A DNA stretch of 64,000 nt from NCBI GenBank assembly GCA_964437555.1, contig CAYTHI010000002.1, forward strand, positions 7,653-71,652, written 5' to 3'. Below, piece by piece: positions 10,892 to 61,370 of the stretch (its first letter is position 1; every line of letters begins with the position of its first letter). A program made the position numbers and the translations under genes. This DNA is from Candidatus Woesearchaeota archaeon. Its GTDB lineage: Archaea; Nanobdellota; Nanobdellia; Pacearchaeales; GW2011-AR1. Under the pieces are notes generated by a model. The model was not told where the DNA came from and made no database searches. It saw only the letters and a list, made by a program, of their open reading frames with translations.

Positions 10892-12655
10892 ATGAAACTA
10901 AAAAGAGGGATAATAATTGCTATAATCCTTATTGCAATAATCATTGCGTTTGTATTATACAAAAAAGAAATACTGCAATTTGGGGAAGACAATGAAAAAA
11001 GCAATTACATTCCAGGCCAGGCATCTATCGGATATATAGGATGCTCAAACACAAGAGAAACAGTTGAAGGCTATCACAGAGTAGGCGGAGGAGACATGTG
11101 GGATTATGATAAAAGATATGATTCAGGCGCTGTTAAAGACTGGGCGCTGGATGCAGAGCCGGAAAAAAGATATTGGAATGTCTTTGATGAGCTTCTTGAA
11201 GAAAATCCGAAAACTAAATTTATATGGTGGGAGCTCTGCATACGCGATGATGAAAGGGAAACAAATTATGAGCAAGCCCAGATTATTTTAAATGAAATCA
11301 GGCAGCGAATTCCTGATGCAGTAATTTATGTCTCTGCACTGGCAGATTATACAGAGGGGGTGTGCGAAATAACAGGCACATTCGGGATAGAAAAAGCAAA
11401 AGAATTAGTCCGGGAATTAGAAAATAATAACGCTGATGTATTTCCAGGCCCTGTGCTTGGCCCTATGGCTCCAATTGATACTGCAAAAGACGGCTGCCAT
11501 CTAAGCAGCCCTGATGGAAAAAGAAAATTAGGAAACCAGATGAAAAAATTCTTTGATAATGAAATGAAAACAGATGATAATGAGCTTTCCTTTGAGGAAA
11601 AAGTCTGGCAGCAGAGAATTGACGCTGCTGTTGCTCCTGTAAATTGCCCTGCAGCAACTCGAAGAACATATCCTCAAGGATATTATGCGGAAAAATTGAT
11701 TGATACTCATTTTCATATTGCTAACATTCCTGATTCAACGCCAAGGGAATTTGAAAAAGGATATCAGGAAGAAAGCGAGCATCCGAGATTAGGAAAAGAT
11801 ATTAGCATCGCAGATATTGTCTGCACTTTAGAGCATGAAGGAACAGCAAAGGCTCTCGGCTTCTTCCCCTTGTATAGGGAAATCCAAGAACAAATGGCTC
11901 AAGTTGTATATGAAACAATGCAAAAATACCCTGACAAATTTATTCCATTTATCATGCCTCCTGATAATGATGGCAGCCCTGATGGATTTCCAACAGTAGA
12001 AGCACAAACCTTGCAGGAAATGCTCAATATTTATCCTGGCTTGTTTGAAGGATACGGAGAAATTGGCTTATATGCGCGGGGAGACAATGGAGGCCCGACA
12101 GGCGCCCCAGAGCTCCCTCCAGACTCTCAAAGGCTTGCTGATATTTATCCAATAATCAGAGAAAATAATTTAGTTATTTACTTTCATTTAGGAGAAGGGC
12201 AAAAGGAAAGTTTTGAAACAGCCTTGACAGCAAATCCTGATATTAATTTCATCTGGCATGGAGACCAATTAATCCCATATGAAAATGGCATTCAAAACTT
12301 AGAGCATATTGATGATATTTTAAGCAATCATCCAAATGCATATTACGGAATAGATGAATTATATGGAGACATCTGGCTTCTCCGCCCTGAAGTCAGCAAG
12401 GAAGAATTTTTAGCGCATTTTGAAAATCAGGAAGAATTATTGGAAAAAGACCTTGCTACATGGAAAAATTTTATAGACTCCCATCCTAATCAGGTATTAT
12501 GGGGAACAGACAGGGGATGGAGTTCCAAATGGTCAATAGATAAAGATGTCGGAATAACATTATCTGATTACACCCGCGCTTTCATCGGCAGGCTCTCCCC
12601 AGATGTTCAGGAAAAATTCGCCTACAAAAATGCCGAGAGATTGTTTGGCGAATAA
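10892..12655 (+). CDS. Membrane-anchored two-domain protein with a C-terminal amidohydrolase-2/TIM-barrel metal-dependent hydrolase-like domain
   Basis: N-terminal TM helix (IIIAIILIAIIIAFVLY); DTHFHIAN and C-terminal LWGTDRGW motifs resemble amidohydrolase_2 family proteins. Confidence 0.5.
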   Translation: MKLKRGIIIAIILIAIIIAFVLYKKEILQFGEDNEKSNYIPGQASIGYIGCSNTRETVEGYHRVGGGDMWDYDKRYDSGAVKDWALDAEPEKRYWNVFDELLEENPKTKFIWWELCIRDDERETNYEQAQIILNEIRQRIPDAVIYVSALADYTEGVCEITGTFGIEKAKELVRELENNNADVFPGPVLGPMAPIDTAKDGCHLSSPDGKRKLGNQMKKFFDNEMKTDDNELSFEEKVWQQRIDAAVAPVNCPAATRRTYPQGYYAEKLIDTHFHIANIPDSTPREFEKGYQEESEHPRLGKDISIADIVCTLEHEGTAKALGFFPLYREIQEQMAQVVYETMQKYPDKFIPFIMPPDNDGSPDGFPTVEAQTLQEMLNIYPGLFEGYGEIGLYARGDNGGPTGAPELPPDSQRLADIYPIIRENNLVIYFHLGEGQKESFETALTANPDINFIWHGDQLIPYENGIQNLEHIDDILSNHPNAYYGIDELYGDIWLLRPEVSKEEFLAHFENQEELLEKDLATWKNFIDSHPNQVLWGTDRGWSSKWSIDKDVGITLSDYTRAFIGRLSPDVQEKFAYKNAERLFGE

Positions 12656-12670
12656 TTAATTAAATAAAAA

Positions 12671-12813
12671 TTTGGGCGGAGAAACCTGCAAGGTTTCGGA
12701 ACCGTTAAATTCCTGTTAATTGCCCCGAGCCGATAGGCGAGAGCGCAGCGTGGTCGAGGCAAAGCCGAAGAAGTTTTCAAAAATCCGTCATCAAGGGCGA
12801 AGCCCCATAAATT
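12671..12813 (+). repeat. GC-rich ~145-nt element, copy 1 (core GGGCGGAGAAACCTGCAAGGTTTCGGAACCG), lying ~100 nt upstream of gene 12911
   Basis: About 80% identity over the first ~50 nt with copy 2 at 14080-14228; local GC clearly above the window background; contains short hairpins (AAACCT-GCA-AGGTTT; GGTT-TCGG-AACC). Confidence 0.6.
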
Positions 12814-12823
12814 CAAATGTTTT

Positions 12824-12838
12824 AGAGGGGGAACTTTT
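12824..12838. repeat. Left arm (AGAGGGGGAACTTTT) of a 15-bp perfect inverted repeat bracketing gene 12911..13885
   Basis: Exact reverse complement of AAAAGTTCCCCCTCT at 13925-13939; ATGTTTT occurs on the outer side of both arms. Confidence 0.6.
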
Positions 12839-12910
12839 TATTTTTAATAGTCATTTAGGGGTAGTAAAATTATAGAAAGCTTTATAAAGTATCAGTTAAT
12901 TCAAATACTT

Positions 12911-13885
12911 ATGGAATTAGAGATTATTACAGAAAGAGAATCAAGCCCGTTTAGAAATATCTTTCCTGAAATATCTGAACATTCAAATGGTAGAAGGTAT
13001 GGACAAGACCTGAAAAAAATGGAACAAGTTATGGGCGAATTCTTAGATTCATTACACTTACCGAGAGATTCACGAACTTTAGAGATTGGAGCAGGACATG
13101 GGCAAGAACCATCTAAAGCACTTCTTGCATTAGGAGCGAAACCAGCGACATTAGATGCTGATTGGAATGAGTATTGTAAAGGAACTATTCCAACAACTAA
13201 GGATTTAGATAGAATTGGAGAAGCACAATTATATCCTATGTTGGCTGGTCAAAATGGCGTAAATCATTATCTTGGTGATGTTGCTTTCATTGGAGATGGA
13301 AGAAGCCAATTGAAAAATGAACGATTTGATTTGCTTTTTTATTGGGGGAGTATTCATGGAACTGATTTTTGTTCTTCAGTTCAGCAAAGTAGAACATCAA
13401 AATATGATTTCAAAAGAGATGTTCCATTAAAGGATAGGTTGGTTGCTCCAATTGGTAATGTAGAAAATAGTATGGCTTATGTTTCTGGATTTTTCAACAG
13501 AACAGGAGACCCGCATATGACACCAAAAAATATCATTGCTTTCAACGGCGATATGGTAGATACTGCATTGTTGTGGGCAAATTATGAGAACAGACAGCCA
13601 CACAGGGTTTTGGTTTTTGGTTTATCGCCTGATTTTGCATTTGAATATGTAAGGGGTGTCGGAGACGAATCTTTAATTGATAAACCAACAGACGCCGAAT
13701 ACAGAGAAGCCGTTGATAATGATACCATTGAAAAATTCATGGCAAATCATTGGTCAATGTTTTCTGACTACAAAGCAAAAGATAGTTCAGCGTATAGAAA
13801 AGCTTTGGAAGTCTTTTCTCCAGCACAGCAAAAAGCAATAAGTGATTTGGGTTTGGTGGATTGTGTTGCTGTGCAGTATAAATAA
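12911..13885 (+). CDS. Rossmann-fold methyltransferase-like protein (hypothetical)
   Basis: 324 aa; TLEIGAGHGQEP resembles SAM-MTase motif I and FDLLFYWG a post-II motif; codon usage slightly atypical for the window. Confidence 0.5.
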   Translation: MELEIITERESSPFRNIFPEISEHSNGRRYGQDLKKMEQVMGEFLDSLHLPRDSRTLEIGAGHGQEPSKALLALGAKPATLDADWNEYCKGTIPTTKDLDRIGEAQLYPMLAGQNGVNHYLGDVAFIGDGRSQLKNERFDLLFYWGSIHGTDFCSSVQQSRTSKYDFKRDVPLKDRLVAPIGNVENSMAYVSGFFNRTGDPHMTPKNIIAFNGDMVDTALLWANYENRQPHRVLVFGLSPDFAFEYVRGVGDESLIDKPTDAEYREAVDNDTIEKFMANHWSMFSDYKAKDSSAYRKALEVFSPAQQKAISDLGLVDCVAVQYK

Positions 13886-13904
13886 TTTCTTTTTTGCAGA
13901 AAAA

Positions 13905-13951
13905 GACTATCTGTCCGCAGCACTAAAAGTTCCCCCTCTTTCTATGTTTTA
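13905..13951 (+). repeat. Dispersed repeat family, copy A (AGACTATCTGTCCG ... CCCTCTTTCTATGTTTTA)
   Basis: Shares AGACTATyTGTCCG with copies D and B, and CCCTCT..CTTTCTATGTTTTA with copy C at 43826-43861. Confidence 0.55.
13925..13939. repeat. Right arm (AAAAGTTCCCCCTCT) of the 15-bp inverted repeat
   Basis: Perfect reverse complement of 12824-12838, 1.1 kb away. Confidence 0.6.
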
Positions 13952-14079
13952 GGATTTTTGAAAATTGCAATTAACATATGCGATTAAGCGACCTGAAAGG
14001 CTCGAGTGTAGAAATTTTTCCCTCGTGAAACAGAGCTGGAAAAATTGCGGAACGCTCGAGTGTTTTTGCGTAGCAAAAA

Positions 14080-14228
14080 TATGGGTGGAAAAACCTGCAA
14101 GGTTTTGGAACCGCTTAATCTGCTGTTCATTTCTCCCGAATACTTGTAGGGATTACATTTTAGTGCAACGATGCCGAAGGCAAAAATGTAAAGTTAAATC
14201 GGACTTTGGGATGGTGGGACACCATTGA
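14080..14228 (+). repeat. GC-rich ~150-nt element, copy 2 (core GGGTGGAAAAACCTGCAAGGTTTTGGAACCGC), ~135 nt upstream of gene 14364
   Basis: Paralog of 12671-12813 in the same orientation; the 87-aa ORF 13965..14228 overlapping it is probably spurious. Confidence 0.6.
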
Positions 14229-14261
14229 GTTTTATGTATTAGAGGATTCGCCGTCTTTTTG

Positions 14262-14322
14262 CTTCTTTTTTTCTAAAAAAGAAGTTTGAGATGGGGCTTT
14301 TGCCTTCTTTTTCTAAAAGAAG
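14262..14322 (+). promoter_or_regulatory. Two tandem perfect hairpins (CTTCTTTTTT-TCT-AAAAAAGAAG, then CTTCTTTT-TCT-AAAAGAAG) with T-tracts, directly upstream of gene 14364
   Basis: Perfect 10-bp and 8-bp stems with identical TCT loops, each preceded by TTTTGC; candidate terminator or regulatory structure. Confidence 0.5.
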
Positions 14323-14363
14323 TTTTAGTAAGATATTTAAATAAGTAAACTAATTTTCTTATA

Positions 14364-15083
14364 ATGGACAAATCAAAATATAGTGTTGAAGAAATTATTT
14401 TTAAAAAGTGCCCTATATGCAAAAAAGGAAAAGTAGAAAAATTAGCACCAAGGGGTTTTTTTAGTTTCGCTAAATCTACTAAAATGATTTGTAATAAATG
14501 TTTAGCACAATTCTCTGAAGATGAAGAATATCAAGAGGAACCAACTTACATATTGGATTTATCTGAATCTAATGAAAAGAATAAATATGAAGGTGAAACA
14601 TTAAAGAAAAGTGAATGGGAAAGAGGTATTTCTGATTTGGATTTATGCGTAAAAACAAATAACTTACCAAAAGCAAGTGTAGTCGGTTTGAAAATTATAC
14701 TAAAGCCAGGAGAACAAGCCCATTGGTATTCTTCTTCAAAACTTATGGAAGAAAGAGCAATAAGACGTTCACATGGTGGAGCTGTAAGGGTAATGAAAGG
14801 TGTATATATTGGAGGAAGCCAATCAGAATCTCATGGAGAATTAAGAACAATAGATAATGGGGGATTATTACTCACAAATCAAAGATTAATTTTTAATGGC
14901 GGATTCAAAAATATAGAATATCCTCTTAGTAAAATTGTTTCTGTAGAAGAATATAAAGATTCAATAGAAATAGGTTCAACTAACAGACAGAAAGTTCAGT
15001 TATATGTAGTTCAAGAACCACATAAATGGGCGACATTTGTTAAAATGGCTGTTCAAATGTCCCATAATGTAAAGAAAAAATAA
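14364..15083 (+). CDS. Zn-ribbon plus bacterial-PH (bPH/GRAM-like) domain protein
   Basis: N-terminal CPICKKG...CNKC zinc ribbon; C-terminal GGLLLTNQRLIF motif typical of bPH_2/YdbT-like PH domains. Confidence 0.55.
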   Translation: MDKSKYSVEEIIFKKCPICKKGKVEKLAPRGFFSFAKSTKMICNKCLAQFSEDEEYQEEPTYILDLSESNEKNKYEGETLKKSEWERGISDLDLCVKTNNLPKASVVGLKIILKPGEQAHWYSSSKLMEERAIRRSHGGAVRVMKGVYIGGSQSESHGELRTIDNGGLLLTNQRLIFNGGFKNIEYPLSKIVSVEEYKDSIEIGSTNRQKVQLYVVQEPHKWATFVKMAVQMSHNVKKK

Positions 15084-15101
15084 TTCTTAAAATTCATTTC
15101 G

Positions 15102-15134
15102 GCGAAGCAGACTATTTGTCCGAAGGACGCCCCC
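15102..15134 (+). repeat. Dispersed repeat family, copy D (GCGAAGCAGACTATTTGTCCGAAGGACGCCCCC)
   Basis: A 19-nt identical core (GCGAAGCAGACTATTTGTC) with copy B; contains the GTCC-GAA-GGAC hairpin. Confidence 0.55.
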
Positions 15135-15257
15135 ATCTCAAGAAAAAAAACTGAAAAATATTTGGGTGTAACGAAGTGAAACCTTTTATCGTTTGTTAGA
15201 TGAAGTGCGAAGCATTTCATAGCCGTTTTTTGGTCCGATAAAAGAAGTATTTTTCTG

Positions 15258-15299
15258 TTTTTACTTTCTGCGAAGCAGACTATTTGTCGCGAAGCGACC
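15258..15299 (+). repeat. Dispersed repeat family, copy B (GTTTTTACTTTCTGCGAAGCAGACTATTTGTCGCGAAGCGACC)
   Basis: Shares its left half with copy C (43826-43861) and its right half with copy D; contains the CTGC-GAA-GCAG and GTCGC-GAA-GCGAC hairpins. Confidence 0.55.
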
Positions 15300-15451
15300 G
15301 AGGCGACTCGCATTTGACAACAATTTCTACTATTGGGTGGGAGAGAATTTTTAATTTGGATGCAATCTGGGAACATAAAGTTATCCCAAGTAGAGTTGGG
15401 ATAACATGCCTAAATACGCATTATCATAAATTATAAATACAATACCATCTA

Positions 15452-16270
15452 ATGCAAAGCATGCAAAAAGAAGAACACCTTAAAAGGCTAAGGCAGGAGC
15501 TTGAGATAAGGAATTTTTCTAAGGAAACAATAAAATCCTACTTAAGTTCAGTCAATAAATTCCTTGATTATTCTAATGGCAATGAAATGAGCCAGCAAAA
15601 AGTCAAAGATTACATACAATCAAGAATAAGCAATAAAAATCCATCTACAATAAGGCAGGGCATATTCGCAATTCAGTTCTTTTTTGATAAGGTTTTAGGC
15701 CAGAAAATATACATTCCAAGGCCTAAAAAGAACAAAACTCTCCCTGAAATACTTACTCTTGAAGAAGCAAAAAAGCTTGTGAATGCTCCTTTAAACCCAA
15801 AACATCAGCTAATATTAAAAATTTTGTACGGATGCGGCTTACGTGTAAGTGAAGTTATAAGTTTGATGAAAAAAGACATTAATTTAGATGAAAGTATGAT
15901 TCACATAAGAATGGCAAAAGGAAAAAAGGACAGGTTCGTAAAAATTCCTGAAAGCGTAAAAGAAGAGTTAGAGCATTATGCGGTTCTTAACAAAGAAGAA
16001 CTCTTATTCCCCTCGCAAAGAGGCGGAAAGCTTACAACAGCAGGAATTCAGGCAATAGTTGAAAAATCAGCCAAAAAAACAGGAATAAAAAAAGATGTTT
16101 ATCCGCACCTGCTAAGGCATAGTTTTGCAACCCATCTCCTTGAGCAGGGCACAGACTTAAGAATAATCCAAAAATTATTAGGGCATTCAGATATCAGAAC
16201 TACACAAATGTATCTTCAGATTTCACAGCAATCTATAAAAAACATAAGAAGCCCCTTAGACAGCAAATAA
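15452..16270 (+). CDS. xerA: Tyrosine site-specific recombinase, XerA/XerCD-like
   Basis: 272 aa; C-terminal LLRHSFATHLLEQGTDLRIIQKLLGHSDIRTTQMYLQI contains the R..H..R..Y catalytic signature of tyrosine recombinases. Confidence 0.85.
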   Translation: MQSMQKEEHLKRLRQELEIRNFSKETIKSYLSSVNKFLDYSNGNEMSQQKVKDYIQSRISNKNPSTIRQGIFAIQFFFDKVLGQKIYIPRPKKNKTLPEILTLEEAKKLVNAPLNPKHQLILKILYGCGLRVSEVISLMKKDINLDESMIHIRMAKGKKDRFVKIPESVKEELEHYAVLNKEELLFPSQRGGKLTTAGIQAIVEKSAKKTGIKKDVYPHLLRHSFATHLLEQGTDLRIIQKLLGHSDIRTTQMYLQISQQSIKNIRSPLDSK

Positions 16271-16271
16271 A

Positions 16272-18548
16272 ATGCCAATTCAAAGCTATCCCCCAACAAC
16301 AGATGCAAAGATAACTGTAGAAAAAACTGTAAAGCGAAAGCCTTCAACAGAAGAGCTTACAACAATAGAAAAGCCAGGCAAGCCAATTCCAGCTTCAGAG
16401 ATGGAAGAATTTGAAAAAGAAAAGCCAAAAAAAACAAAAAAAGCAAGAAGGCAAAATAAGCCAAAAACCCAAGAAGCAACAAAAATAAGCCAAAAGCAGG
16501 ATGCAATATTAATAATAACAGAAAAGCCGCAAGCTGCATTGAAAATTGCCTCTGCATTGGGAGATGCAAGAAAATATTCTGAAAATAATGTTCCTTTCTA
16601 TGAATTGGAGAAAAACAATGAGAAAATAATTGTCGCTTCTGCAGTGGGGCATTTGTTTAATCTTACATATGTGAAAGGCCAGACAGGCTGGCCTATCTTC
16701 AAGACAGAATGGGTCCCATCCTATACTCAAAAAGCTTCCTATACAAAAAATTACTATGATTTAATAAAAAAATTATCAAGAAGGGCAAAAGAAATAATCG
16801 TTTCTACTGATTATGACATAGAAGGAGAAGTAATAGGGTGGAACGTCCTTAGATTTATCTGCAGCAAAGAAGACGCAAAAAGGATGAAATACTCTACATT
16901 AACAAAGCCTGAATTAATAAAATCATATGAAAATGCAATGCCTCATCTGGATTGGGGGCAGGCGTATGCAGGTGAAACAAGGCATGAAATAGACTGGCTT
17001 TACGGAATTAACCTATCAAGGGCATTAATGTCTGCAATAAAAACTACAGGCGGCTTCAAGATACTTTCAATAGGCCGTGTTCAGGGCCCTGCATTAAAAA
17101 TAATAGTGGACAGGGAAAAAGAAATATCAAGCTTCAAATCCAAAGTGTATTGGCAGGTTTTTGCCATTATAGGAAAAAATGAGTTTAAGCATCCCAAAGA
17201 TATTTTTGAAAAGACAGAACTTGAGCAATTTAAAGATATAAAAGAAGCTGACGCAGAAACAAAAGCATCCGAAGAAAATCTGCAGCCTCCGCATCCGTTT
17301 GATTTAACAGCACTGCAAAGAGAAGCATATCGCCTTCATAACTTAAGCCCTTCAAAAACTCTTCAGATAGCGCAGGCATTATACTTAGACGGAGTTATTT
17401 CGTATCCCAGAACTTCCTCGCAAAAAATACCAGAGCAGATAGAGCCAAAAAATATCCTTGAAAAATTAGCTAAGAAATATCCCCAGACAAAATATGCCGT
17501 GAGAAGCAAGCCGGTTGAAGGCGGGAAATCAGACCCTGCTCACCCTTCAATATACCCAACAGGCGAATTTAACAATTCATTAAAAGAAGATGAAAAAGAG
17601 CTATATGAATTAATAGTAAAAAGATTCATAGCCTGCTTTTGCGAGGATGCAATAACAGCAAATAAAAGGATAAAGCTGGCATCATTAAAAGACCCTAAAA
17701 AAACATTTACAGCTTCTGCCCTGACAATAAAAGAAAAAGGCTGGCTGAATGTTTACCCAACAGAATTGCAGGAAAGCTCTTTGCCTGACTTATCAGGAAG
17801 AGTAAAAATAGACAAAATCAGGATTGATGAAAAGCTTACACAGCCTCCGAAAAGATACACGCCTGCTTCTTTAGTCTCCTTACTGGAAAAAAAGAATCTC
17901 GGCACAAAAACAACAAGAAGCATGATTGTAGATACTTTATTTGACCGCGGATATTTAGACGGAAAAAGCATTCAGGCAACTCCTCTTGGTTTAAAACTTA
18001 TTGAAACCCTGGAAAAATATTCTCCGATAATTATTGACGAAAACCTCACAAGAGAATTAGAGGAAAAAATGGAAGAAATTCAGAATTCAAAAGCTGGTTT
18101 TCAGGAAAAGAAAGATAAAGTCATCCATAATGTTGAAAGATTAATCACAGACATCTCAAAAGAATTCAGAATTAATGAAAGAAACATCGGGCAGGATTTA
18201 TTGCAGGGCACACAAGAGTTAAGAGAACAGCAGAAAGAAAACAGCATAATAATGCCCTGCCCTGTCTGCAAAAAAGGGCATTTAGCGATAAAATACTCAA
18301 AAAAGAACAGAAGGCAGTTTGTTGCCTGTGATAATTACCCTGAATGCAAAACAACTTTCTCTCTGCCCCCCGGCGGATTTGTAAAAAAAACAGACAAAGT
18401 TTCAGAAAAAGGCCTGCCAATATTAATTTTATTAAAAAGAGGCAGGCGTCCGTGGGAATTTCCATTCAATCCAAACTGGAAAGCCGAGCAGCAAAAAGAA
18501 CAGCAGGAACATCAAGAACAGAAACCCCAAAAAGATAGCGAAGAATAA
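16272..18548 (+). CDS. topA: DNA topoisomerase, type IA (Topo I/III-like), with a C-terminal C4 zinc ribbon and a Lys/Glu/Pro-rich ~90-aa N-terminal extension
   Basis: TOPRIM begins at AILIITEKPQAA; type IA core motifs (GYISYPRT-like VISYPRTSSQ); CPVCKKG...CDNYPEC zinc ribbon; low-complexity basic N-terminus and acidic/Q-rich C-terminus. Confidence 0.85.
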   Translation: MPIQSYPPTTDAKITVEKTVKRKPSTEELTTIEKPGKPIPASEMEEFEKEKPKKTKKARRQNKPKTQEATKISQKQDAILIITEKPQAALKIASALGDARKYSENNVPFYELEKNNEKIIVASAVGHLFNLTYVKGQTGWPIFKTEWVPSYTQKASYTKNYYDLIKKLSRRAKEIIVSTDYDIEGEVIGWNVLRFICSKEDAKRMKYSTLTKPELIKSYENAMPHLDWGQAYAGETRHEIDWLYGINLSRALMSAIKTTGGFKILSIGRVQGPALKIIVDREKEISSFKSKVYWQVFAIIGKNEFKHPKDIFEKTELEQFKDIKEADAETKASEENLQPPHPFDLTALQREAYRLHNLSPSKTLQIAQALYLDGVISYPRTSSQKIPEQIEPKNILEKLAKKYPQTKYAVRSKPVEGGKSDPAHPSIYPTGEFNNSLKEDEKELYELIVKRFIACFCEDAITANKRIKLASLKDPKKTFTASALTIKEKGWLNVYPTELQESSLPDLSGRVKIDKIRIDEKLTQPPKRYTPASLVSLLEKKNLGTKTTRSMIVDTLFDRGYLDGKSIQATPLGLKLIETLEKYSPIIIDENLTRELEEKMEEIQNSKAGFQEKKDKVIHNVERLITDISKEFRINERNIGQDLLQGTQELREQQKENSIIMPCPVCKKGHLAIKYSKKNRRQFVACDNYPECKTTFSLPPGGFVKKTDKVSEKGLPILILLKRGRRPWEFPFNPNWKAEQQKEQQEHQEQKPQKDSEE

Positions 18549-20510: not shown

Positions 20511-20532
20511 GAAGAAATAAAGATTAACTTGT

Positions 20533-20619
20533 GATCCCGTAGCTCAGCCTGGTTAGAGCACTGCTCTGATAAGCCTATCAGAAAGGCAGGGGTCCCAAGT
20601 TCAAATCTTGGCGGGATCA
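20533..20619 (+). tRNA. tRNA-Ile (anticodon GAT) with a 12-nt intron at the canonical 37/38 position
   Basis: Acceptor GATCCCG/CGGGATC, D-arm GCTC-AGCCTGGTTA-GAGC, anticodon stem CTGCT/GGCAG with loop CTGATAA, T-arm CCAAG-TTCAAAT-CTTGG; the inserted GCCTATCAGAAA has TATCAG pairing with CTGATA (BHB-like). Confidence 0.75.
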
Positions 20620-20654
20620 TTCATAAAAGAGCATACTTAAACAAAGAGAGCAAA

Positions 20655-44070: not shown

Positions 44071-44093
44071 CGTTTTTGCCCCACAATTATTAT

Positions 44094-44181
44094 GTCCCCG
44101 TAGCTCAGTTGGTTAGAGCGCACGGCTGTTAAAATTAGTTTAGAAACCGTGATGTCCGAGGTTCGAGTCCTCGCGGGGACG
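44094..44181 (+). tRNA. tRNA-Asn (anticodon GTT) with a 14-nt intron
   Basis: Acceptor GTCCCCG/CGGGGAC, D-arm GCTC-AGTTGGTTA-GAGC, anticodon stem CACGG/CCGTG with loop CTGTTA-A split by AAATTAGTTTAGAA, T-arm CGAGG-TTCGAGT-CCTCG. Confidence 0.75.
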
Positions 44182-44230
44182 TTCTATCTCTCTAAGATAA
44201 ATTTAAATTTAATTATTAATTACCAATACA

Positions 44231-59728: not shown

Positions 59729-60913
59729 TTAAGTATTTTTATCCATTAAATTAGCTCTATCTAAAAAGAAAGAATAATCTTTTGCAATTATCTTATTCTT
59801 TATCTTTATTGAATTAAACAATTCCTTTTGCTTTTTTTCCAGTTCTTTGTTGTATTTTGCTTCAATTAAGGCGTCTTTAGTGATAAAGTCTATTTCTATT
59901 GAATTTTCAAGATAATAGGCAGGATTTTCATCTTTTATCTTCAAAAATACCAAGTTTTCAAAACTAGCGCCTAAATCTTTTAATCCCGTTATAATATTTT
60001 TAATTCCTATGTCTCCTGCATAAATTTTCTTTGGGGAAGTCACTTTTTCGTTATAGGATTTAGCATACCTGTCAACAATATAAAATAAATAAGATTTTTC
60101 AAAATAGCCTACATATCTTTTTGCACTATCAACCGAGATTTTTAATATCTCTGCCATCTTGTTATAGCTCATTGGTTTTCCAACTCTCTGGCATAAAAGA
60201 ACAAAAAGCTCTTTTATTGTTTTCTCTGCTGTAATCTTATGGTAAGCTATTATATCTTTGTAAATTACACTTTCAATTAGTTCATTTAGATAATTTTTAT
60301 CTTCTGTTAGAACGTAATTTGGCATTCCTCCGATTTTCAGATAATCTGTAAAATAACTCTCCAGTTTGGCCGTATCAGATTTGGATATGCTGGCTTCTTT
60401 AAATTGTAAAAACTCCTGAAAGTCCAGAGGCATTATTTCTATTGTTATTATTCTTCCGGTCAGGCTTGCTTTTTTGTCTCTTAATAAAGTAGCAATTGAA
60501 GAAGAGCAGATAACTTTTATTTTTTCATTGTCATAAATGCTCTTTAGTTCCTGTTCAAAATTCTCTCTGGAAGAAACTTCATCTAAAAATAAATAAAAGA
60601 AGTCTGCAGAAGACTTTTTATGTATCTTTCTATATTCTTCTATTAATTGATGAATACTAAATTCCAAAAGATTGAATGCGTCCAGACTTACAAAAAATAT
60701 ATCTTCGGGCTTATTTTCCTTTAATAATTCTTTTATTGCCTGTATTACTATTGTTGTCTTTCCCACCCTTCTCAATCCAGTAAGAATAATTATCTCTTTT
60801 GACTTAATATTTTTGAATATTTGTGATAAATATTTTTCCCGAATGTAGCTTTCCTCTTTAAACTTGCTTTCCCACCAAGGATTTTGCTTAAACAATTCTG
60901 CTTCAATTTCCAT
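59729..60913 (-). CDS. AAA+ ATPase (DUF4143/COG1373-like archaeal ATPase); the start at 60913 (MEIEAELF) is preferred over the track start at 61033
   Basis: Walker A GLRRVGKTT, Walker B FLFLDEV; the upstream track extension would translate a tandem DNA repeat. Confidence 0.65.
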   Translation of the reverse strand: MEIEAELFKQNPWWESKFKEESYIREKYLSQIFKNIKSKEIIILTGLRRVGKTTIVIQAIKELLKENKPEDIFFVSLDAFNLLEFSIHQLIEEYRKIHKKSSADFFYLFLDEVSSRENFEQELKSIYDNEKIKVICSSSIATLLRDKKASLTGRIITIEIMPLDFQEFLQFKEASISKSDTAKLESYFTDYLKIGGMPNYVLTEDKNYLNELIESVIYKDIIAYHKITAEKTIKELFVLLCQRVGKPMSYNKMAEILKISVDSAKRYVGYFEKSYLFYIVDRYAKSYNEKVTSPKKIYAGDIGIKNIITGLKDLGASFENLVFLKIKDENPAYYLENSIEIDFITKDALIEAKYNKELEKKQKELFNSIKIKNKIIAKDYSFFLDRANLMDKNT

Positions 60914-60940
60914 ACATATTTCAATTCTTAAACATTTAAA

Positions 60941-60997
60941 TACTTTACTATTCCATCGTATAGTATTATATATTACTTTACTATTCCATCGTATAGT
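60941..60997. repeat. Two copies of the 24-bp direct repeat TACTTTACTATTCCATCGTATAGT (period 33 bp) in the promoter region of the AAA+ ATPase gene
   Basis: Exact copies at 60941-60964 and 60974-60997, 28-85 bp upstream of the ATG at 60913 on the minus strand. Confidence 0.6.
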
Positions 60998-61370
60998 CTG
61001 ATAAATACCTGTTGCATCAAAACAACCTGCCAAGACATACTTAATGAATTAGTTGAATTTGACTGCCTCCCGCGCGAAAGGGCTAATAATTATGCGTGTG
61101 GCCCAGCCATTTCTGGCTAGGAATAATAAAAGAAAAGATGTATTTTTATAATTATGCATTCAAAAGAGTGTCAAGAATTAGGGGCTTGATTTTGCTGTCA
61201 GGTTGGGGGGCTTTCGGGATAACTTTTATAGGATGTTTCTCTATAAAATGTATGCAGCAGAAAGATGTAAGCTTAATGTTGCAGGACAAGGAAACAGATG
61301 GATGAATTTAATTAAATCAGTTCAAGCCGCACCTGACAACACAGGAGAAAATTACGGAAAGCCCCGAAAG

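Follow-up and report, generated by a model that had tools for sequence, protein, structure and literature searches.

Introduction

Integrons are the standard case of gene capture via folded single-stranded DNA, and their integrases are thought to be derived from Xer recombinases. Here we analyse a stretch of 64,000 nucleotides from a Candidatus Woesearchaeota archaeon (assembly GCA_964437555.1, contig CAYTHI010000002.1, positions 7,653–71,652 of the forward strand), referred to below as the window. Two copies of a conserved element lie there in the same orientation upstream of xerA, the gene of an archaeal tyrosine recombinase. Comparison with related loci in other genomes leads us to propose that these elements are, on balance, probably folded recombination sites that bound mobile cassettes in a XerA-linked, integron-like array.

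The attC sites of integrons are 57–141 nt long and conserved in structure, not in sequence, and the open reading frames (ORFs) of their cassettes are mostly co-oriented. Several other systems rely on Xer recombination. The single-stranded genome of the CTX phage, an integrative mobile element exploiting Xer (IMEX), folds into a hairpin attP site used by XerCD. XerS/difSL and XerH/difH are bacterial systems with a single Xer and a dif site adjacent to the recombinase gene; we know of no reports of cassette arrays at these sites. In Acinetobacter plasmids, pdif modules carry 28-bp duplex sites in alternating orientation.

The locus in the window and its relatives resemble integrons most closely. 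In both, co-oriented and imperfectly palindromic sites lie about one gene apart. Each site has an invariant AAC...GTT box at the base of its stem, a paired but variable inner box with a bulge and a variable top; half of the outer box belongs to the neighbouring cassette, and the crossover, here as predicted, falls in a conserved triplet. When the locus is flipped, a simple site lies, as in integrons, beside the gene of a Xer-clade tyrosine recombinase that is transcribed away from the array, and the cargo is accessory in both. In contrast to integrons, the recombinase is an archaeal XerA of 272 aa in which the IntI-specific additional domain was not found, and the elements are 160–300 nt long, with a sequence-conserved three-way middle segment, an extra domain at the 3′ end (Y domain) and outer repeats that are cassette-specific. 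Moreover, cassette ORFs lie on either strand and the flanks of the R box are not consistently RYYY/RRRY. The system is integron-like, yet it departs from integrons in three defining respects, namely the IntI-specific domain, the size and sequence variability of attC and the co-orientation of the ORFs. A canonical integron was rejected because the integrase scores below the IntI cut-off and the sites are too long.

As in CTX, a housekeeping-type Xer is apparently used beside a dif-like site, the repeats are tandem and co-oriented, and the substrate is likely a folded hairpin. Each unit here, however, is a lone accessory gene and lacks genes for replication or virions, and the paired arms are unlike the local dif-like arms; nor are the units flanked, as an IMEX is, by dif-like duplex sites resembling the host dif. 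The XerS and XerH systems share with our locus a single Xer with a dif-like palindrome immediately upstream of its own gene, whereas they are bacterial and the sites described here are not duplex dif copies. Like pdif modules, the cassettes are small modules of one to few genes between Xer-type sites in varied contexts; unlike pdif, the sites are large, structured and strictly co-oriented. The system is not described in Rfam or in the literature that we searched, and the text supplementary files of the archaeal integron paper by Ghaly et al. 2022 (PMC9668308) contain neither the core sequences nor the six contig accession prefixes tested. The proposed XerA-linked cassette platform looks like an undescribed relative of the bacterial integron.

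Two elements in the window belong to a conserved family

The 23-nt core AAACCTGCAAGGTTTYGGAACCG was found exactly twice in the window, at 12682–12704 (copy A) and 14091–14113 (copy B), both on the plus strand. Even with up to three mismatches tolerated, none of 100 shuffled sequences contained a match, and the chance expectation was 0. The regions around the two cores are 76% identical across about 210 aligned columns, with conserved blocks at either end. An earlier note on this DNA had described the pair as paralogous, GC-rich elements with small hairpins, lying in the same orientation just upstream of two plus-strand genes of unknown function. This observation is real. Paralogy is borne out by the shared core and the overall identity, and GC content does stand out, as a moderate rise (0.44–0.52 against approximately 0.35 in the window). 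The elements lie 98 and 136 nt before the ORFs starting at 12911 and 14364, neither of which has a Pfam or NCBIfam match. The note had placed the elements correctly at 12671–12813 and 14080–14228, but not their limits: copy B is a full-length family member with its true start at 13965, about 115 nt further upstream, and copy A has a degenerate 5′ half that runs over the stop codon, at 12655, of the gene before it. The functions that the note suggested are unsupported, as set out below.

A search of the 64-kb window with a covariance model of the element (R1) returned no copy besides A and B, and related modules also occupy 13886–13964 and 15084–15406. A k-mer map of shared modules across the window was too noisy in the AT-rich DNA. 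Rfam gave no family for either element, whether the whole window was searched at gathering score or the region at E≤10. Single-sequence folds of the elements were no more stable than those of shuffled sequences on either strand (z = -1.3 and -0.8), and structure was therefore judged by comparison between copies.

A larger family, which the note had thought worth searching for, does exist. A species-representative genome collection was scanned once with the exact 19-base pattern AACCTGCAAGGTTNNGGAACC, which returned 89 stretches from approximately 80 genomes, mostly of DPANN archaea. Most source bins are Woese-, Pace-, Nano-, Nanohalo-, Micr-, Aenigm- and Altiarchaeota, and some are labelled Methanosarcinales or bacteria. 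The whole of locus L013, labelled Saccharibacteria, is 100% identical over 3,096 nt to positions 1–3096 of L063 (1281–4376 of its reverse complement), labelled Methanosarcinales, so the taxonomy assigned to short contigs with the element, bacterial labels among them, is unreliable. Exact-pattern scans of the IMG/VR viral contig collection returned no match, and a viral or proviral origin was dropped on this ground.

Reading of the flanks across loci showed that the core sits in a conserved element of 160–300 nt. In the direction of xerA, the element starts with TTG-N5-(T/G)AACA-T, followed by the 5′ arm of a stem that we call P1 (about 11 nt). GAAGT comes next, and then a set of nested hairpins, between one and three in number and variable in length. 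These lead to ATTTGGGyGRAG with a hairpin, GGAACC, the P1 3′ arm and TGTT-N5′. The 3′ end is formed by the Y domain, a hairpin followed by a second stem that contains AGTGCAACG, with a closing RAGT. The invariant (T/G)AACA ... TGTT(A/C) is present, with flanks that are not consistently RYYY/RRRY, and common types have a short bulge, usually TC, on the 5′ side of P1 (by eye).

The pairing of this structure is strongly conserved. The P1 arms exist in 27 distinct paired versions, and among 21 canonical elements 97.1% of cells were paired, with 13 pairs changed on both sides. The covariation score was 0.220, compared with 0.097 in shuffles, none of 500 of which reached 0.220, and with at most 0.069 when partners were slid. 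R1 also detects copies whose middle hairpin differs widely in sequence, with compensation. The elements thus have the conserved hairpins claimed for them and are not structureless remnants of a duplicated spacer.

Individual loci carry variants of this plan. About 140 nt upstream of the core in L042, up to three nested stem units (N8-CCCUCG ... CAGAGCUGG-N8′) lie between GAAGT and ATTTGGG; the same unit is present singly in many elements, including copy B (at about 14012–14044). In L036 (2725–2800) the middle segment, from GAAGT through the core, is present as its exact reverse complement between the P1 arms, with normal flanks, a pattern due either to inversion of the DNA between these inverted arms or to faulty assembly. 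Near position 6718 of L073 an element has no middle segment, and the prefix with half of P1 runs straight into the 3′ end (AACATCGGAATT|CCTGTTAG); the upstream cassette end is common to L029.

Elements lie in co-oriented arrays with accessory-type cargo

R1 gave 169 matches in 553 kb of loci. Every match lay on one strand in 46 of the 48 multi-copy loci, with a median start-to-start spacing of 1175 bp, and arrays reach at least five units per 8 kb. A single ORF was present in 43 of 78 intervals between neighbouring elements, with a median ORF length of 188 aa. Orientation of the genes was not fixed: 61 ORFs within arrays lie on the strand of the element and 65 on the opposite one.

The one or two genes between successive elements are unrelated, and neighbouring genes are highly diverse. 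Across the 90 loci, 124 of 151 were singletons by BLAST, and no gene family or transposase recurred among element neighbours. Cargo with Pfam matches includes S-adenosylmethionine (SAM) methyltransferases, a TrmB regulator, an ABC-2 permease, a GT2 glycosyltransferase and an N6/N4 DNA methylase; further cargo comprises a PIN protein, an HD protein, a metallophosphoesterase and the specificity subunit of a type I restriction-modification system. The cassette genes are of the accessory type, toxins among them.

By a count in the locus table, approximately 75 of the 89 element blocks are first or last on their contig or lie on a contig shorter than 8 kb, which means that arrays are seen incomplete. 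This suggests that the arrays break short-read assemblies, and the position at contig ends fits a repeated array.

xerA and a minimal dif-like site at the end of the array

The protein encoded next to the array in the window passes the NCBIfam model recomb_XerA_Arch (242 bits, cut-off 220). It scores 202 bits with the integron-integrase model TIGR02249, below the cut-off of 265, and this match is split into two stretches. Its best match in the PDB is XerA of P. abyssi (4a8e); the match to IntI4 (2a3v) again falls into two stretches.

The placement of the elements relative to xerA is constant. A tblastn search with the window XerA found homologs in 14 of the 89 8-kb blocks, and all 14 lie downstream of an element on the same strand, at a distance of 0.5–3.4 kb, as in the window; in four of them topA follows xerA. 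For the reverse test we took from metagenome contigs those XerA homologs that were at least 46% identical and had over 1 kb of sequence ahead of them. All six had one to four R1 matches upstream, and the 13 matches were without exception upstream and co-oriented. Thus, position and orientation relative to xerA agree in 21 of 21 cases (14 genome loci, six metagenome loci and the window).

Between the last cassette and xerA, 60–100 bp before the start codon, lies a minimal site consisting of the prefix TTG-N5-(T/G)AACA(T/C) and a lineage-specific palindrome. Equivalent sites were found upstream of xerA in 13 other loci. The palindrome of the window has a 10-6-10 layout and lies 46 bp upstream of xerA; it is kept in L091 with partly compensated changes. 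That of L027 reads ATCATATCATAA-GTTTAT-TTATGATATGAT. Arms of 10–12 bp with a 6-bp spacer are present in the window (15380–15405), L003, L027 and L059, and spacers in other loci are 5–18 bp long. Such arms and spacer are the published architecture of archaeal and bacterial dif (PMC2958812, PMC8371274). The segment 15380–15405 is a candidate dif site beside the gene of its own recombinase, unlike in Thermococcales, where dif is not adjacent to xerA (PMC2958812). GC skew showed no clear switch at xerA. The P1 arms are unlike the dif-like arms of their own locus and lie 60–140 nt apart; only the prefix TTG-N5-TAACAT is common to both.

Predicted position of strand exchange

Pairing between neighbouring elements indicates where exchange may fall. 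In 40 of 79 neighbouring pairs, the 60–70 nt that follow the Y domain of one element contain a perfect reverse complement of 13–17 bp to the upstream flank of the next, compared with one and three of 79 in controls. These outer repeats vary from cassette to cassette. Closer to the element, N5 plus AACA pairs with TGTT plus N5′ of the previous element in 16 of 34 cases over nine contiguous pairs, the limit tested, and in 19 of 34 by eye if AACG variants are allowed; in controls, it paired with its own TGTT side in five of 74 cases and with that of a random element in six of 74. In the window, GCAATTAACA of copy B (13967–13976) pairs with TGTTAATTGC of copy A over nine contiguous pairs, again the tested length. 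The P1 arms behave in the opposite way, pairing within their own element in 28 of 36 cases and with the arm of the previous element in three of 36. Since N5 pairs with the previous element and P1 with its own, the switch of partner lies between them, within AACA(T).

Comparison between loci agrees with this position. In L091, the closest relative found (86% XerA identity), collinearity with the window starts exactly at the AACAT at 15372 and continues across xerA and topA; upstream of AACAT the two are unrelated, cassettes included. Pairwise BLAST breakpoints between loci fell mostly at element boundaries, with few informative exchange points. In addition, circle junctions constructed in silico folded 12–25 kcal/mol better than in-array contexts in six of seven cases with DNA parameters (in L088, -81.9 against -57.2 and -43.7 kcal/mol), as is expected if the cassette was once circular with a single site and a cassette-specific stem base. 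Taken from sequence comparison, these patterns point to a crossover at the invariant AACA, following the logic of integron attC sites.

Organization of the window locus

The locus comprises two elements, two cassettes, a mosaic of modules, the minimal site and xerA, all read on the plus strand. Element A (12645–12773; R1 49 bits, E=1e-9) is the copy furthest from xerA. Direct reading places ATTTGGG at 12670–12676 ahead of the core, the P1 3′ arm CGTTAAATTCC at 12703–12713 and TGTT with N5 (TGTTAATTGC) at 12714–12723, and a variant Y domain ends at 12773. The left inverted-repeat (IR) half of cassette 1 follows at 12774–12838, with IR-La (TTTTCAAAAATCC, 12774–12786) and IR-Lb (AGAGGGGGAACTTTT, 12824–12838). 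The gene of cassette 1 (12911–13885) encodes a protein of 324 aa with a glycine-rich LEIGAGHG motif. At the right end of the cassette (13886–13964), a hairpin module (TTTTTTGCAGAAAAAG, GTCCGCAGCAC) is followed by IR-Rb (AAAAGTTCCCCCTCT, 13925–13939) and IR-Ra (GGATTTTTGAAAA, 13952–13964), which are 100% complementary to IR-Lb and IR-La, respectively.

Element B (13965–14194; R1 101 bits, E=1e-21) begins with the prefix TTGCAATTAACAT (TTG-CAATT-AACAT) at 13965–13977. The P1 5′ arm GCGATTAAGCG (13980–13990) is separated by a long nested-hairpin insert (13991–14079) from ATATGGG and the core (14080–14113). Downstream lie the P1 3′ arm CGCTTAATCTGC (14112–14123), TGTTCATTTC (14124–14133) and the Y domain with its AGTGCAACG motif, which extends to AAAGT at 14190–14194. 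The P1 arms of this element show compensatory changes relative to the common type. Its tail, the left end of cassette 2 (14195–14363), contains TAAATCGGACTTTG, the hairpin GATGGTGGGACACCATT and GAGGATTCGCCGTC (14243–14256), motifs that in L088, a homologous locus, pair with sequence ahead of the following element. The gene of cassette 2 (14364–15083) encodes 239 aa with the CxxC pairs CPIC and CNKC near the N-terminus. Paralogy of the two cassette genes was rejected, as the proteins are unrelated.

Cassette 2 is followed by approximately 290 nt of gene-free hairpin modules (15084–15371), in which TTTCnGCGAAGCAGACTATTTGTC occurs twice (15097–15120 and 15265–15288) together with an element-like remnant (TTTGGGTGTAACGAAGTGAAACC...TTTGTTAG). 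By eye, L011 has the same sequences ahead of xerA, whereas L050 and L059 have related ones. The XerA proteins of these three loci are only 41–66% identical to that of the window despite the like mosaic upstream, which extends over about 250 nt in L011. An ORF of 107 aa on the minus strand (15053–15376) coincides almost wholly with the repeated hairpin modules and is unlikely to be a real gene. The minimal site (15372–15405) consists of AACAT (15372–15376) and the palindrome GTTATCCCAA-GTAGAG-TTGGGATAAC (15380–15405). xerA itself (15452–16270) encodes a tyrosine recombinase (Pfam Phage_integrase, 1e-40) that is the candidate recombinase of the array, and topA (16272–18548) follows directly.

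Two further features lie elsewhere in the window. The tRNA genes at 20532–20620 and 44093–44182 (88–90 nt) pass the Rfam tRNA gathering score, and the anticodons that ARAGORN gives for them are odd ('ga' at position 37 and 'aaa' at position 39); these archaeal tRNAs may contain an intron or have a long variable arm. At 60941–61006, two tandem 33-nt copies (TACTTTACTATTCCATCGTATAGT...) with 91% identity overlap the 5′ end of a minus-strand ORF at 59729–61033.

Alternative explanations

One alternative is that the element encodes a structured non-coding RNA, either as a gene of its own or as a domain that travels with every cassette. Such an RNA might be a recombinase cofactor, a regulator, or an antisense or toxin-antidote RNA, and the DNA layout would then be secondary. 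Its multi-helix architecture and strong covariation would suit an RNA, as would the high conservation of unpaired motifs (ATTTGGG, GGAG/CGGA, AGTGCAACG, GAAGT) and the helix insertions of variable length, which resemble expansion segments; about one third of the copies directly precede a T run. The pairing itself speaks for DNA. The stems are almost purely Watson-Crick, with five G:T against nine A:C mismatches in the outer repeats and four against seven in 684 paired positions of P1, whereas a transcript would be expected to show an excess of G:U. The outermost pairings link one array element to another and exist nowhere else, an arrangement that would make no sense in an RNA, and the DNA upstream of the elements is cassette-specific, so there is no conserved promoter position. 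We also counted the inverted middle segment of L036 and the missing one of L073 in favour of a DNA site. Together with the Rfam searches, blank even at E≤10, and the single-sequence folds, which were no better than shuffles, these points make an RNA gene unlikely, including the small-RNA family raised in the earlier note. Many loops are C-GNA-G mini-hairpins such as GCGAAGC, which are unusually stable in single-stranded DNA. The element may also be transcribed. Of the earlier suggestions, shared regulatory DNA came closest in taking the elements for DNA sites, and the evidence favours a recombination site over a regulatory one.

A second explanation takes the elements as mere stretches of homology, or as mosaics of promoters and terminators, that accompany horizontally acquired genes and at which ordinary homologous recombination acts in a variable island beside xerA and dif. 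Hybrid elements with a foreign P1 5′ arm do indicate exchanges inside the element, tails often carry TATA-like AT-rich boxes and T runs, and many modules recur in varied combinations. Homology of at least 160 nt, however, predicts scattered exchange, whereas the switch of partner is confined to a few bases between N5 and P1. Co-orientation in 46 of 48 loci and the constant relation to xerA in 21 of 21 are what site-specific recombination predicts. We hold this explanation to be improbable.

It is very unlikely that the elements are miniature transposable elements, such as miniature inverted-repeat transposable elements (MITEs), repetitive extragenic palindromes or bacterial interspersed mosaic elements (REP/BIME) or IS200 derivatives, moved by a transposase encoded elsewhere and inserted time and again between genes. 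The mosaic, modular build, the inverted repeats and the many C-GNA-G mini-hairpins are reminiscent of such elements. These are dispersed repeats with target duplications or a transposase, whereas the copies here are clustered and co-oriented, with only one cluster in the 64-kb window, and have neither target-site duplications nor a recurring transposase nearby. Moreover, the inverted repeats bracket the genes between the elements, not the elements.

The last explanation takes the elements for 5′ leaders or riboswitches that act in cis on the two genes downstream, as the position of both window copies before plus-strand genes had suggested. It is refuted by the statistics of orientation and gene content: array ORFs lie on either strand and belong to unrelated families across the 90 loci, and the two genes of the window show no relation to one another. 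Nor is there a fixed position or orientation, coherent gene set or curated RNA family as in riboswitches.

Several further identities were rejected. A tRNA-like fold, group I or II intron ends and C/D or H/ACA small RNAs were dropped upon reading of the sequence. The copies differ at all bases and not just at A, unlike the template and variable repeats of diversity-generating retroelements. For clustered regularly interspaced short palindromic repeats (CRISPR) the repeats are too long and the 'spacers' hold genes. No TnpB or IscB gene lies nearby to which a guide RNA would belong, and the 'tails' are shared modules, not guides. The origin recognition box (ORB) of archaeal replication origins has a different consensus, and the copies are many.

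Discussion

In the mechanism that we propose, cassettes would move as circles, each with one element. When single-stranded or extruded, the element would fold into a long branched hairpin whose base, N5-TAACA/TGTTA-N5′ with the outer inverted repeats, would be cassette-specific. The AAC/GTT box and the bulged P1 stem would act as the R and L boxes of attC. XerA would swap strands within AACA(T), either between an element and the xerA-proximal site or between two elements, and such exchange would insert, excise and shuffle cassettes. XerA or accessory factors are the probable ligands of the middle segment and the Y domain. Read in the flipped orientation, the locus runs from a leftward xerA through the minimal site ending in ATG|TTA-N5, a cassette, the reverse complement of the Y domain, N5-TAACA and an L arm, and onward through the variable top and the other L arm to ATG|TTA-N5 and the next cassette. 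An integron is laid out in this way, and ..TAAC here takes the place of R″ and G|TTA.. that of R′. From the patterns described above we infer recombination, a circular intermediate, a folded substrate, a role of XerA and the exact position of cleavage.

Several points weigh against this mechanism. No recombination product, circle or polymorphic array was observed, and the involvement of XerA is suggested by synteny alone. The dif-like palindrome lies 3 nt beside the predicted crossover and not around it. About half of the neighbouring pairs do not have the predicted complementarity. Within the window, element A has no proper 5′ half, and the tail of cassette 2 has no partner (right-hand) repeat. 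In six of the 21 canonical elements the 5′ P1 arm is of another type and mismatches the 3′ arm, so some exchanges fall inside the element. The middle segment and the Y domain are conserved including unpaired bases, far beyond any terminal structure of attC, as would be more usual for a functional RNA or a platform to which proteins bind. Finally, the core and its flanks are near-invariant across loci that were selected by an exact pattern, and this is partly a selection effect that inflates the apparent conservation.

If folded recombination sites are nevertheless the correct interpretation, the cassette system would be run by an unmodified XerA, and the principle known from integrons would be older or wider than the IntI family. 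It would also provide a concrete model for the origin of integrons. The elements, which in most loci lie at or near contig ends, could be used to mark cassette arrays in metagenomes. For the DPANN archaea, with their small genomes and poorly understood accessory genes, it would supply a specific hot spot and a mechanism of gene flux. With slightly less than even confidence, we suggest that these archaea possess an undescribed platform for gene capture, in which the housekeeping XerA and large folded sites of 160–300 nt do the jobs of IntI and attC, either as an independent invention or as a relative of the Xer-based ancestor of integrons, and that this platform may be a main route of gene exchange in these ultra-small symbionts.

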